NCBI GenBank assembly: GCA_048939765.1
Contig: JBHLPF010000034.1
Coordinates: 1 to 12,395 of the forward strand
Length of the DNA stretch: 12,395 nt
Reading direction: 5' to 3'
Origin: Promethearchaeota archaeon
GTDB lineage: Archaea > Asgardarchaeota > Thorarchaeia > Thorarchaeales > Thorarchaeaceae
Made by a program: the position numbers and the translations under genes. Numbering within the stretch: position 1 is the stretch's first letter; each line of letters starts with the position of its first letter. Positions 862-11,498 of this stretch are shown here, one piece after another. The notes under the pieces were generated by a model, which ran no database searches, was not told the origin of the DNA, and saw only the letters and a program-made list of their open reading frames with translations.

Positions 862-1325
862 TCACCAAGCTTGATCAGGAAGGTCCTGTTCTGGTTCCAT
901 CCTCTGGCAACTTTCGCATGAAGCCTCAGGACTGTATGATCGGGGTCGTCGTACCCGGTAGGATAGTACCTCTCCATTCCGTCCTCCCATATGGCTTTCT
1001 TCATCGTATTGCCTGGTACTATCTCAAGTGTCCCTCCAAGCATCACCCCTCGCGATTCATCTGGAAGACAATAATATGCTGATGCTTTGGAGCTTGTAGC
1101 TATATTCTCGACCTTTGTAGAGGAGGTATTTGTTGAGAAGATCACGAAGAAATCGTCGTCCTGTTCCGAAAAGAAGGAAATCAGCCTCGGATACTTCTCT
1201 GCATTTCTCAGGTTGTACATGGCTCTAGTCTGCGGGAAACCATCTTTGTCGATGGTCGTGAGGATTACTGGCCACGCTTCACTCACAAGCCTAATACATA
1301 CCTTACGTATTTCATCATCATCCAT
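858..1325 (-). CDS. Pyridoxamine 5'-phosphate oxidase-like / general stress protein 26 (FMN-binding split barrel)
   Basis: LTTIDKDGFPQTRAM, FSTNTSSTKV and KAIWEDGMERYYPTGYDDPD are characteristic motifs. ATG at 1325 follows SD GAGGTGA, preferred over GTG at 1334. Confidence 0.85.
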   Translation of the reverse strand: MDDDEIRKVCIRLVSEAWPVILTTIDKDGFPQTRAMYNLRNAEKYPRLISFFSEQDDDFFVIFSTNTSSTKVENIATSSKASAYYCLPDESRGVMLGGTLEIVPGNTMKKAIWEDGMERYYPTGYDDPDHTVLRLHAKVARGWNQNRTFLIKLGD

Positions 1326-1340
1326 TCGGTTCACCTCGAT

Positions 1341-1386
1341 TATTGGTACGATACCGTACTAAATAGTACGATACCGTACTATTTAA
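1341..1386 (-). promoter_or_regulatory. Tandem palindromic operator (probable MarR sites) overlapping a TATA-like box
   Basis: GTACGATACCGTACT occurs at 1346-1360 and 1366-1380. 1361-1384 is a perfect 10-4-10 inverted repeat (AAATAGTACG-ATAC-CGTACTATTT). TTAAATAG lies on the minus strand at 1386-1379. Confidence 0.75.
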
Positions 1387-1410
1387 GGATTGGTGACAAC
1401 GCAAGGTCAT

Positions 1411-2262
1411 CTACGTCTTGACTGCCCAGAAAATCACAAGCCCTGGAAAAGTTTCATAGGCCCCACATTGGGCGAAATTAGCTTCTATCACTGCCCCCAC
1501 ATCGTTTCCCTCAACCACTCCGAGTTCGGGATAGAGATGTGTAGAGGTCACCCGGATGAATTCTCCCAGACCTGGTTTTGTGGGTTCTTCAAAGAATGCA
1601 AATGGTGCGACGATTCTGAGTGCCCCTCCAACCTTGAGGATGCGTTTGCATTCTGAGATGGCCTGTGGAAAATCATTTCTAGCAGGCACCCCAATCAACC
1701 ATGCCTCCGCAAAACGCTCATTTGGCGAAGCAATATCACAGATATTTCCTTTCATCTCTCTATATTTGATTCCTGTCCGTTTGACCATGGAGGACTCACC
1801 AAGTATGTCGAGTGGATTCCCTTCATTTCTGGTTGCTAGATAATCCACGGTCTTCATGTCCCTCTCCTTGAAACGAGGAAAAGACGCAAGTAGAATTCTT
1901 CCGTCAATTCTGTCTATTGTGCCCACATCTAAAACGTCGTGGAGATAGGTAGCTGCTGTGTGTCGATATGCGTCATAGAAGTGAAGAACGATCTCAATCG
2001 CATCTCTCAGAATCTGACGGAGATGTGTTTCTCCTCTGGGGCCCAATCGATAGACCCGCCTGTCCGGTCCATGAGGTCCTGACTCTCTTCTGCTCTCAAC
2101 GAGTCCTTCTGACTCCAAAGTATGCAACCATCGATACAGAGTGGTCAGTTGAAGCCCTCTTGCTTCTTCAGGCAAGGCATTAAGGAGGTCGTACCCGTGA
2201 TGGGGCGCCTGATCTAATGCGAGCAATATCCGGTTTCTTATCCAATCCTTTGATACCTTCAA
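1411..2262 (-). CDS. PadR-family wHTH regulator fused to a degenerate class I SAM-methyltransferase-like domain
   Basis: N-terminus has HHGYDLL...LYRWLHTLESEGLVESRRESGPHGPDRRVYRLGPRG (PadR). C-terminus has GNICDIASPNERF...AISECKRILKVGGALRIV (MTase post-II/III motifs) but no GxGxG motif I. Confidence 0.8.
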   Translation of the reverse strand: MKVSKDWIRNRILLALDQAPHHGYDLLNALPEEARGLQLTTLYRWLHTLESEGLVESRRESGPHGPDRRVYRLGPRGETHLRQILRDAIEIVLHFYDAYRHTAATYLHDVLDVGTIDRIDGRILLASFPRFKERDMKTVDYLATRNEGNPLDILGESSMVKRTGIKYREMKGNICDIASPNERFAEAWLIGVPARNDFPQAISECKRILKVGGALRIVAPFAFFEEPTKPGLGEFIRVTSTHLYPELGVVEGNDVGAVIEANFAQCGAYETFPGLVIFWAVKT

Positions 2263-2287
2263 GCTATATGCAGCTCCACGTATAGCT
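2262..2287. promoter_or_regulatory. Inverted repeat at the PadR-MTase start; candidate autoregulatory operator
   Basis: AGCTATA (2262-2268) and TATAGCT (2281-2287); it also contains the imperfect 14-mer palindrome AGCTATATGCAGCT (2262-2275). Confidence 0.45.
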
Positions 2288-2344
2288 ACATGGGCATTCG
2301 TACTTATCTTCTCTGCTTCTTTGAATCAATGCGGTGAATAGCTA

Positions 2345-8887: not shown

Positions 8888-9268
8888 TCAGAGCTTCAAC
8901 TCAGCTTCGCTCTTCCAAAGTCCATGAATATTACAGTATGAAGTAGCCATCAACGTGCCTGATTTGTTGGTCTTGAAGACGAACTTGGCAACTGGCTCGC
9001 TGTATATGCCGCTACTATCAGGTCCATCAGCAGATTCACCGTGGTGATCGAAAGTACAGTATCCAATCTCTACGGGAAACTTAGCTCCTTCTGGCCAGAG
9101 GAAGAGATCACACCATTTGATATGATGCGCAGTCGTGTTTGGATGTGGAATCTCCTTGCCAACAATCACTTTGACGTACGCCTTTCCATCTTCGACCTTC
9201 ACTATATCAATTGAAGGCACATGTTTCTCTTTCTTCCAGTCATCGGTCTGTATCCATTTCTTTGACAT
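8888..9268 (-). CDS. sor: Superoxide reductase (1Fe-SOR, neelaredoxin type)
   Basis: EKHVP, HPNTTAHHIKW and SYCNIHGLW iron ligands; no desulforedoxin domain. ATG at 9268 has GGAGG 7 nt upstream. Confidence 0.93.
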   Translation of the reverse strand: MSKKWIQTDDWKKEKHVPSIDIVKVEDGKAYVKVIVGKEIPHPNTTAHHIKWCDLFLWPEGAKFPVEIGYCTFDHHGESADGPDSSGIYSEPVAKFVFKTNKSGTLMATSYCNIHGLWKSEAELKL

Positions 9269-9350
9269 AGGCTTTCCTCCCTCAAAGGAGTAGGATAATA
9301 GGCTCATCGCTCTAATGCCATAAAACAGTTCTCCTAGGTACACAATCTAG

Positions 9351-10844
9351 CTAACGGTCCAATTTCCTAATTTGATTCAGAGTCCACTTTCCCCTTTGAG
9401 TCAGGGTATAATAGCTTCTATGACGATTTTCATATGTCTTCTCGACTCGCGAATTAATAATCAGTCCACTGCTAGTCAGCTCTGTAAGGTGCTGGTATAT
9501 ACTTGGGATCTTAATGTCCACTCCATATTCATCCGAAAGAACCCTCCAAATTCCATATCCATAAGACTCACTCTTAGAGAGTATCTGTAGAATGCGGATT
9601 TTGGTCTGGCCTAGCTTCGTTGTAACTCTACGACCCTCCACCCTACTGAGCAGCTGCTCAAGAGGCCCCTTCCCCTTGACAAAGGTCCTTGCAATCTCGG
9701 GGTACTTGAGCCCCATTCCAGTAATGACACATACCACAGAATCATCACGTCCTATCTTTCCTGAGTGAATGAGTTTCTGCAGAGCTGCTATAGTGGTAGC
9801 TGATGATGGCTCTGCGAAGACGCCTTCTCGTCTTGCGAGCTGCCTCACAGCTTCCAATATCTCTCTATCGGAAACAGAAATAGCGATTCCGCGTGACTCC
9901 TCAATTGCCATCAATGCTGTACGTCCACAGACTGGATTCCTTACGCATATGTCAAAAGCTACCGTAGACGTAGACGAAGGCGGAGTGATGCTTTTCACAC
10001 CGCCCTTAAACGCCTCAACAATTGGTGCACAACCGCTAGCCTGAGCCCCGACTATCTTAGTATGCGAAGCATCAATCAGTCCAATCTGCTCCAGCTCCCT
10101 TAGCCCCTTCCATATCATCGACACATGACCGCCATTTCCCATTGGGGCAATAATCCAATCTGGTGCATTCCAATCCAGCTGCTCACACGTTTCGTAGATC
10201 GTTGTCTTCTCTCCTTCCATGAAGTGTGGATTGGAGGATGTTATGAAGTGGCTTCTTCCACTCTCTTGACGTGCCATTGCCATGGCTTCTTCTTGATCTC
10301 TGACTATCTCAACATCTGCTGCATAGGCGAGAATCTGGTAGAACTTGCCAATATCCACATTGCCTTTCTGACCTATGAACACCTTACTCTCAAGGCCAGC
10401 CCGAGCTGCGTAGGCAACAAGAGACGCAGCAAGATTCCCAGTAGATCCACAACACACCGACCTGAATCCATATTCCCTCGCTGCAGACACCTCGACCGCT
10501 GTACCACGATCGATGAATGCTCCAGTTGGGTTTGTTGTTTCGTCTTTGAGGTAAAGGCTATGAGTTCCCACGTCCTTTGCGAGACCATCACACTTGTGTA
10601 AGTAAGTTCCACCCTCACCTAGCGATACCATGTTCGCTTCGTTTTGAATTGGCAGTAGTTCAAGATACTTCCAAATGCCCTGTCTTCTTCTTCCAAGACC
10701 CTTGGAAGTGATCTTACTCTTCGCTGTTTCGATGTCATAGACGACATTCAGAACCTGTCCGCAAACAGAACAAGAACTGACGTAGTTTTGCGTAATGAAC
10801 TCATGTCCGCAGTCAGTGCACTTGAATCCAGACTGAAGTGACAT
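9351..10844 (-). CDS. Threonine-synthase-like PLP fold II domain lacking the catalytic Lys, fused to a C-terminal PadR wHTH
   Basis: Zn ribbon CxxC...CxxC, SLGEGGT, NPTGAFIDRG (canonical NPTGSFKDRG), STGN, PMGNGG, EPSSA and TGMGLK, followed by SYGYGIW...SIYQHLTELTSSGLI...RSYYTLTQRG (PadR). Confidence 0.88.
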   Translation of the reverse strand: MSLQSGFKCTDCGHEFITQNYVSSCSVCGQVLNVVYDIETAKSKITSKGLGRRRQGIWKYLELLPIQNEANMVSLGEGGTYLHKCDGLAKDVGTHSLYLKDETTNPTGAFIDRGTAVEVSAAREYGFRSVCCGSTGNLAASLVAYAARAGLESKVFIGQKGNVDIGKFYQILAYAADVEIVRDQEEAMAMARQESGRSHFITSSNPHFMEGEKTTIYETCEQLDWNAPDWIIAPMGNGGHVSMIWKGLRELEQIGLIDASHTKIVGAQASGCAPIVEAFKGGVKSITPPSSTSTVAFDICVRNPVCGRTALMAIEESRGIAISVSDREILEAVRQLARREGVFAEPSSATTIAALQKLIHSGKIGRDDSVVCVITGMGLKYPEIARTFVKGKGPLEQLLSRVEGRRVTTKLGQTKIRILQILSKSESYGYGIWRVLSDEYGVDIKIPSIYQHLTELTSSGLIINSRVEKTYENRHRSYYTLTQRGKWTLNQIRKLDR

Positions 10845-10898
10845 CCTATATCATGCCTATATATAGGCTCAAAATTATATATCCTTCTCTCAGAGAAG
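10845..10898. promoter_or_regulatory. Divergent promoter with a central TATA element flanked by two perfect palindromes
   Basis: GCCTATATATAGGC (10855-10868), TTATATAT (10875-10882) and CTTCTCT-C-AGAGAAG (10884-10898). Confidence 0.65.
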
Positions 10899-10925
10899 AG
10901 AATGATGAATAGAGGATGATCTGCA

Positions 10926-11498
10926 ATGGAGCTCTTCAGACCCAAAATACAAAGTAACACAATGTTTGTCGCCTTATTGGCTATTCTAACAGCCCTGACC
11001 ACAATTGCTACAATAGTACTTGCCATTCCTATCCCGGCAAGTGATGGGTTTCTCAATTTTGGAGATGCACTAGTGATGCTAAGCGGTCTCTTACTTGGTC
11101 CTTTGGGCGGCTTTATCGCTGGGGGAGTCGGTTCAGCAATGGGTGATGTCATCTTGGGCTACGTCCATTTCGCTCCAATCACTTTAGTTGTAAAGGGCTG
11201 CGAAGGGTTGGTGATGGGACTTTTTTGTAGTCGAGCCAGAAGTGCCAGTCTATTGACGGTATGGGACGTGGTTGGACTTGCTGTATCCTCACTTGTCATG
11301 TTGACCGGATATTTCCTCGCAGAGATCCCTTTGTACGGATATGGAGCTGCACTAACTGAGCTGTTGACAGCAAACTGGCTTCAAGTGGCAGTTGGTTCAA
11401 TCGTCACTGTCATTGTGGGACCTGTGGCAAGGCGCTTTCTGCAGGACACACTGTATCCATTCGAAAATGACAATTTGGTGGATATGCAGAACGAGTGA
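10926..11498 (+). CDS. ECF transporter S (substrate-binding) component
   Basis: IPIPASDGFLNFGDALVMLSGLLLGPLGGFIAGGVGSAMGDVILGYVHFAPITLVVKGCEG matches the S-component pattern; about 6 TM helices. Confidence 0.88.
   Translation: MELFRPKIQSNTMFVALLAILTALTTIATIVLAIPIPASDGFLNFGDALVMLSGLLLGPLGGFIAGGVGSAMGDVILGYVHFAPITLVVKGCEGLVMGLFCSRARSASLLTVWDVVGLAVSSLVMLTGYFLAEIPLYGYGAALTELLTANWLQVAVGSIVTVIVGPVARRFLQDTLYPFENDNLVDMQNE

Follow-up and report, generated by a model that had tools for sequence, protein, structure and literature searches.

The window, a 12,395-nt stretch of archaeal DNA, is contig C41 of a 3.37-Mb genome that is 88.5% complete, and its closest protein matches are to Thorarchaeota and other Asgard MAGs. 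Two of its genes stand head-to-head, separated by 81 bp. The minus-strand gene (9351–10844) encodes a 497-residue fusion of a ThrC-like domain to a PadR domain, recognized by Pfam and NCBIfam matches, and the plus-strand gene (10926–11498) encodes a 190-residue ECF S component of the HmpT/PdxU2 type (PF07155, E = 2.5 × 10−33), preceded by a Shine–Dalgarno-like GAGGA at 10912–10916. The original prediction had described this pair, its 81-bp gap and a set of repeats around a TATA element within the gap, and all of them were found where it had placed them. Going from the regulator to the transporter, a half site CCTATAT (10845–10851), which is a direct repeat, abuts the start codon of the regulator. 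It is followed by a perfect 14-bp inverted repeat, GCCTATATATAGGC (10855–10868), which consists of an unoriented 12-bp palindrome, CCTATATATAGG (10856–10867), and its G/C flanks. Beyond a plus-strand spacer, CTCAAAA (10868–10874), lie an unoriented TATA box, TTATATAT (10875–10882), and a 7-1-7 palindrome, CTTCTCT-C-AGAGAAG (10884–10898). On the far side of the regulator gene, 7 nt downstream and on the same strand, is a gene for a desulfoferrodoxin-type superoxide reductase (8888–9343, minus strand), which may therefore be co-transcribed with it.

The fusion begins with a CxxC...CxxC zinc ribbon, continues with a PALP fold (residues 73–376, about 9717–10628, minus strand; PF00291, E = 4.7 × 10−65) and ends with a PadR winged helix (residues 418–490, about 9375–9593, minus strand; PF03551, E = 1.7 × 10−11, above the cut-off), an architecture shared by all fusions examined. 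Databases all label it ‘threonine synthase’; it scores 206 bits against TIGR00260, for which the cut-off is 167, and also passes the cut-off of NF006050. The PALP and TIGR00260 matches establish descent from ThrC, not activity. In an alignment to five solved threonine synthases, the site of the PLP Schiff-base lysine is taken by Ile111 (codon 10512–10514, minus strand), so that the fusion reads NPTGAF-I-DRG where threonine synthases read NPTGSF-K-DRG, and the Ile111 codon is two base changes away from any lysine codon. Across 120 homologues surveyed, isoleucine or leucine occupies this position in all 116 with a readable motif. Among 42 aligned fusions, the near clade has isoleucine, leucine, asparagine or threonine there and never lysine; a second clade (clade B) mostly has arginine, with lysine in three sequences, and the two clades may therefore not bind the cofactor in the same way.

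Other active-site motifs have changed as well. The NPxRxEGQKT motif, invariant in the five solved threonine synthases, is NPHFMEGEKT in the fusion, and its arginine is absent from 42 of 42 aligned fusions; STGNL, GNGGH and AFDICVRNP stand where the solved enzymes read STGNT, GNAGN and ATAIRIGNP. The replaced ThrC arginine and threonine are residues that we take, from the Thermus enzyme, to be the holders of the substrate phosphate. In contrast to these losses, N137, G236/G238, E345 and TGxGLK are invariant or nearly so among the fusions, and the asparagine of STGN, the glycine loop and TGxGLK are presumably the cofactor contacts of the fold. Two ThrC paralogues elsewhere in the genome both retain the Schiff-base lysine. 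We reject the annotation of the fusion as a threonine synthase (EC 4.2.3.1), since it lacks the Schiff-base lysine and departs from other invariant active-site motifs. Most likely the 497-residue protein is a dead enzyme that acts as a transcription factor instead. Because catalytic motifs are lost, cofactor motifs are kept and lysine-bearing paralogues are present, a ligand sensor is the best reading of the ThrC-like domain, which to judge from its sequence probably holds PLP or another phosphorylated B6 vitamer non-covalently.

The PadR part of the fusion gives weak PDB matches, which are to PadR and RosR proteins. PadR dimers bind palindromes via two conserved tyrosines and one basic residue (PMC5728393); compared with this published motif at motif level, the residue ahead of the wing YY is mostly basic in the aligned PadR domains. 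The YGY...YQHL recognition region is invariant in 33 of 33 aligned sequences, and its invariance parallels the deep conservation of the palindrome described below. Since ThrC and PadR proteins alike work as dimers, we expect the palindrome CCTATATATAGG to be bound by a pair of PadR winged helices.

The S component belongs to its family and has the expected six-helix fold, as seen from the PF07155 match and from an AF2 model with a pLDDT of 90. Only one PDB chain, 4hzu_S, was matched by its sequence (E = 1.1 × 10−15), and a profile of 33 orthologues reached E = 3.7 × 10−29 for this chain, 0.027 for RibU and 1.7 for BioY, in a comparison of solved structures, to which PdxU and other unsolved groups do not belong. 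The best Foldseek match of the model is again 4hzu_S (TM 0.84, 30% identity); the next matches are folate, riboflavin, thiamine, biotin and pantothenate carriers at 12–20% identity, and all top matches are S components. Among solved S components, both profile and fold searches thereby group the protein with HmpT/PdxU2, which the original prediction had named as an example of B6/HMP specificity, and away from riboflavin, folate, thiamine and biotin carriers. Of the proposed pyridoxamine contacts of HmpT, Asn140 and Gln143 are kept, Glu41 is replaced by Asp47 and Ser136 is not kept. HmpT, earlier predicted to be a hydroxymethylpyrimidine carrier, carries pyridoxamine according to one study by mass spectrometry and simulation (PMC4860826), and PdxU and PdxU2/HmpT are among only three characterized prokaryotic B6 transporters (PMC9997740). 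Two ABC ATPase genes and a CbiQ/EcfT gene form an EcfA–EcfA′–EcfT operon on contig C46 that has no S gene of its own.

The pairing of regulator and transporter is conserved well beyond this genome. We sampled 151 genomes of the phylum, many of which have a full-length fusion, and fetched 30 Asgard loci. The S gene adjoins the fusion in 26 of these (25 divergent, 1 convergent), pdxS does so instead in two, and two have neither; coordinates added co-directional and convergent pairs from other families. A scan of species-representative genomes, using a full-length fusion alignment and a lysine-excluding pattern, yielded 572 relatives, of which the best 80 were examined; they include Thorarchaeota, Hermod-, Loki- and Njordarchaeota, Bathyarchaeia, Nitrososphaerota, Methanomethylicota, Brockarchaeota and Thermoprotei. 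Within these best 80 of 572, a PF07155 gene lies beside the fusion in 66 loci, pdxS–pdxT in 4 and an EamA or MFS gene in 2, and several of the remaining loci are at contig ends. Both sets together place an S gene beside the fusion in 92 of 110 loci and pdxS–pdxT in 6 of 110. The synteny implied by the original prediction is thus borne out in Asgard and Thermoproteota lineages alike and in three arrangements, divergent, co-directional and convergent.

Loci with pdxS are informative as to cargo. In one genome (G041) the fusion is divergent from pdxS–pdxT with the same palindrome in between, in a second (G007) the fusion comes first in an operon fusion–pdxS–pdxT, and in a third (G048) an S gene is directly upstream of pdxS. 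The S component is predicted to carry a vitamin B6 vitamer, and the linkage to pdxS–pdxT supports B6 transport.

Several variant loci were seen in the same survey. A sister species of the same genus (G134) has two pairs of a fusion and a divergent S gene, at C68:4923–6982 and C14:52857–54904, with 68% and 65% regulator identity; with two complete copies, the module has been duplicated there. In several close Thorarchaeota relatives the operator and the S gene are separated by a gene of about 180–206 codons on the S-gene strand (L077:3292–3909, L092:3365–3907 and L080:1914–2468, all minus strand), which makes the divergent unit a two-gene operon. Two Bathyarchaeia loci have other genes just upstream of the fusion, at the usual place of the S gene: a divergent EamA-family gene (L089:92–1060, minus strand) and a fragment of an MFS gene on the strand of the fusion (L106:3069–3773, plus strand). 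These neighbours are candidate alternative B6 carriers. In G100 the fusion is divergent from a gene for a 395-residue protein without a Pfam match (L040:205–1392, minus strand), and the S gene is on another contig.

Our search of the host genome (88.5% complete) for pdxS found none, and none was found in any of 26 genomes of the family, many of them 95–99% complete; in the sampled phylum, 24 of 151 genomes have it. For pdxT there was no match above the cut-off in the host genome, and the search there for a pdxK/pdxY pyridoxal kinase turned up nothing beyond a YjeF protein and a pfkB sugar kinase of generic type, an apparent gap in the path from an imported unphosphorylated vitamer to PLP. With none of pdxS, pdxT and pdxK found in the host genome, the regulon here is one of uptake only. 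The pattern suggests that the Thorarchaeota lineage of the host is a B6 auxotroph. On contig C87 of G000 (L046), a gene for a stand-alone 116-residue PadR protein (1024–1374, plus strand) is convergent with, and abuts, a gene for a 311-residue pfkB-family kinase (1375–2310, minus strand), which is the only weak Phos_pyr_kin match in the genome.

We then come to the 81 bp between the two genes. In dinucleotide shuffles of this region (n = 5,000), a gapless palindrome with 7-nt arms arose in 3.7% of cases, a 7-1-7 palindrome in 2.6% and 7-nt arms with any gap of 0–5 in 13%. Each palindrome alone is only mildly unusual within so AT-rich a sequence, and the case for an operator therefore rests on conservation, which goes beyond chance at 10856–10882 only. 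Of 25 intergenic regions between divergent Asgard pairs, 22 contain CCTATATATAGG, exactly or with up to two mismatches, together with a 6–7-nt spacer and TTATATAT. The consensus of these 22 loci, anchored on the palindrome, is gCCTATATATAGGct.aa.ctTATATAT, with no conserved position outside; the spacer is semi-conserved in it as ct.aa.c, and the TATA box is conserved in the same 22 loci. In relatives whose flanks can no longer be aligned, the 12-mer is invariant or nearly so.

The same element extends across phyla. A second set, again with up to two mismatches to the 12-mer allowed, has it at 24 of 25 Asgard loci, at 7 Bathyarchaeia loci, at one from Brockarchaeota and, among the 9 Nitrososphaerota loci whose upstream sequence is long enough, at 7. 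Read in the orientation of the fusion, the composite element comprises ATATATAA(G), 6–7 bases, CCTATATATAGG, 3–11 bases and the start codon. The spacing of palindrome and TATA box is constant across the second-set loci. The CC/GG flanks of the palindrome are conserved across phyla as strictly as its AT core. On the strength of this conservation, we predict that CCTATATATAGG is the PadR operator. The simple CCTATATATAGG pattern does not hold for the second fusion clade or for most Bathyarchaeia whose operon has the fusion followed by the S gene; the palindromes there are related but different, and loosely defined. Lineages in which the S gene is not divergent carry related palindromes, such as CTTGTATACAAG and CTTATATATAAG, upstream of the S gene, and this supports the S gene as a direct target.

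Not every element of the original prediction shares this conservation. It had also listed the extra half site on the regulator side and the 7-1-7 palindrome on the transporter side. No half site is seen in relatives whose proteins are 84% and 68% identical; the 7-1-7 palindrome survives in the 84% relative with one mismatch and has been lost from the 68% relative. Neither being conserved, and chance expectation for them being modest, we reject both as functional parts. Within the 3.37-Mb genome the exact 12-mer occurs once, its three one-mismatch copies are all intragenic and without a TATA partner, and a reversed control pattern is commoner than the 12-mer itself. A scan of the host genome with the 12-mer, at up to one mismatch, thus gave no further regulon member or good operator copy. 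In other genomes the palindrome is also kept at loci in which pdxS replaces the S gene.

Taken together, we consider it likely that the locus is a vitamin B6 homeostasis module, in which a PLP-type sensor-regulator controls itself and a B6 importer via the palindrome. The possible B6 uptake regulon that had been proposed from the window gains from the HmpT/PdxU2-like S gene, the kept cofactor motifs, the pdxS–pdxT swaps and the pdxS-less family. The linkage of the S gene, the swaps for pdxS–pdxT and the absence of pdxS leave B6 as by far the likeliest candidate for both signal and cargo. It is unlikely that the signal is another one, with the ThrC-like domain sensing threonine, homoserine or its phosphate, or a PLP–amino acid adduct, or with the S component carrying hydroxymethylpyrimidine or another compound. 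Such a reading can point to a domain that derives from threonine synthase and still lies above one NCBIfam threonine synthase cut-off, to the several substrates carried by members of PF07155, to the first prediction of HmpT as a hydroxymethylpyrimidine carrier (PMC4860826) and to a host genome in which no pyridoxal kinase was found. However, the genes swapped in for the S gene in six loci are pdxS–pdxT and not thr, hom or thi genes, and in G048 an S gene stands in front of pdxS. Moreover, the arginine and threonine that presumably hold the substrate phosphate are replaced here, and the arginine is lost in every aligned fusion.

The spacing of the conserved block bears on how such a module might work. 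From the centre of the TATA box to the start codon of the regulator the distance is about 26–27 nt where the gap between palindrome and start codon is 3–5, mainly in Nitrososphaerota, and 30–35 nt in Thorarchaeota. The archaeal rule for a leaderless transcript is 26–27 nt, so that 30–35 nt implies a leader of a few bases in Thorarchaeota. TTATATAT is predicted to be the core promoter of the regulator, with a leftward start site near 10852, and is possibly also the promoter of the S gene, with a rightward start site near 10905. In Thorarchaeota the palindrome is too near the start codon, at only 6–11 nt, to serve as the TATA box of the regulator itself. Its place in the window would be about −4 to −15, a region that RNA polymerase must occupy, which makes autorepression by occlusion a well-grounded reading.

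Two geometries are compatible with control of the S gene. The first has a shared TATA box, TTATATAT, which would put the start site of the S gene near 10905 and the palindrome right beside its BRE. BRE–TATA–BRE promoters fire both ways in Pyrococcus, with paired start sites approximately 50 bp apart (PMC6640164), and here TTATATAT has BRE-like flanks, CTCAAAA on the plus strand and GAGAAGG on the minus strand; the spacer CTCAAAA would thus be the BRE-like element for rightward transcription of the S gene. In the second, the palindrome core TATATATA would be the TATA box of the S gene, with a start site near 10888 and the regulator competing with TBP. The distances fit both geometries, including those in the short pdxS-divergent loci. 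The notion of one TATA element for both directions is therefore sound in its geometry and has a precedent (PMC6640164), but the palindrome core fits as a TATA box for the S gene too. In Archaea a site upstream of the BRE can mean activation rather than repression. With the S gene on the shared TATA box, the palindrome would be upstream of its BRE, and the effect may be activation.

It is very unlikely that the conserved block is a core promoter only, that is, a strong bidirectional promoter with two TATA-like boxes and their BREs, a palindrome that is no operator and a PadR domain that binds elsewhere or not at all. The palindrome centre TATATATA is indeed TATA-like, the near-symmetric TATA boxes of Archaea can drive transcription in either direction (PMC6640164), and shuffling makes the palindrome only mildly improbable. 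Against this, the CC/GG flanks are as strictly conserved across phyla as the AT core, and a 12-mer that is unique in the genome, where the reversed control is commoner, is no general promoter element. At 6–11 nt from the start codon of the Thorarchaeota regulator the palindrome is also too close for a TATA box, and the related palindromes upstream of the S gene in other lineages have non-TATA centres (CTTGTATACAAG).

We favour the operator. From the observed anatomy, conservation, homologies and gene linkage we infer a ligand, a mode of DNA binding, start sites and a sign of regulation that would combine as follows. The PLP-loaded regulator would bind the stretch that separates the TATA box from the start site of its own gene, with the PadR dimer on the palindrome CCTATATATAGG, 7 nt from the TATA box, blocking RNA polymerase and so repressing its own gene. 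The palindrome also abuts the BRE/TATA element from which the divergent S gene is probably transcribed. With B6 in good supply, the loaded regulator would shut off both the importer gene and its own, and under a shortage of B6 it would release the two. The S component would then dock on the shared EcfAA′T module and import a B6 vitamer that the host is apparently unable to make. With somewhat less assurance than for the local module, we think it reasonably probable that this family of a ThrC-derived pseudoenzyme fused to PadR is the missing archaeal B6-responsive factor, in which a near-unchanged spacing of operator and TATA box from Asgard to Nitrososphaerota, Bathyarchaeia and Brockarchaeota lets one dimer site in a BRE–TATA–BRE promoter control both the regulator and the importer, or a PLP synthase.

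Bacteria regulate vitamin B6 via MocR/PdxR, which Archaea lack (MocR regulators are reported to be absent from Archaea; PMC5320631). The fusion resembles MocR/PdxR in joining a PLP-enzyme fold as sensor to a winged helix and in its regulon, which in the bacterial case is pdxST and/or a PF07155-type B6 carrier, pdxU (PMC5320631). PdxR is also divergent from its target and autoregulated together with it (PMC5320631); the fusion is divergent as well, and autoregulation is predicted for it. MocR regulators, however, have a fold-type I aminotransferase domain with a Schiff-base lysine and an N-terminal GntR-type helix, whereas the fusion has a fold-type II ThrC-like sensor that has lost the lysine, a C-terminal PadR domain and an archaeal TATA/BRE logic. 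We do not count it as a member of MocR/PdxR, a family defined by GntR and fold-type I domains, because its PadR and fold-type II PALP domains both come from other families and stand in the opposite order. In full-text literature searches, neither a named archaeal B6 regulator nor a description of a ThrC–PadR fusion came up.

Closer in design are two regulators of the same domain of life. ThiR for thiamine and RbkR for riboflavin, from papers of the Rodionov group, reportedly join an enzyme paralogue to a DNA-binding domain and control genes of vitamin uptake or synthesis. They share the design principle of the fusion and differ from it in their folds, ThiN and a CTP-dependent riboflavin kinase, and in their vitamins; RbkR is moreover catalytically active, whereas the fusion is without the ThrC catalytic lysine. 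That the fusion is likewise an enzyme and a regulator at once, an active threonine synthase or other PLP enzyme that also binds DNA, is highly improbable: enzyme-regulators do exist in Archaea, RbkR being listed as such (PMC8305020), all databases name the fusion threonine synthase and the NF006050 cut-off is passed, but its Schiff-base lysine is an isoleucine two base changes from lysine codons and never lysine in the near clade, further invariant ThrC residues are replaced, and the enzymatic role can fall to two lysine-bearing paralogues.

If our reading of the fusion as a B6-responsive regulator is true, hundreds of archaeal ‘threonine synthase’ genes are misnamed, and a fold-type II PLP pseudoenzyme would be a new type of sensor among one-component regulators. 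One would then predict that Thorarchaeota are B6 auxotrophs and rely on vitamers supplied by the community, which would be useful for cultivation and for metabolic models. The short, sharp operator by the TATA box would offer a clean test case for an archaeal repressor on a possibly bidirectional promoter.

The two partners of the module each have a relative among known proteins. HmpT/PdxU2 of Lactobacillus brevis (4HZU chain S) has the same S-component fold as the archaeal protein at 30% identity, and is bacterial. PadR proteins of subfamily 2 (LmrR, Pex and archaeal RosR-like proteins) have a winged helix and one C-terminal helix, as in the fusion, for which dimeric binding of a palindrome is expected; they differ in being stand-alone proteins of 11–13 kDa with an effector pocket made from dimer helices, whereas the fusion has a separate N-terminal sensor of 390 residues. 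The window holds a second PadR-domain protein, of 283 residues (1411–2262, minus strand), in which the PadR domain (residues 12–82) is followed by approximately 200 residues without a Pfam match.
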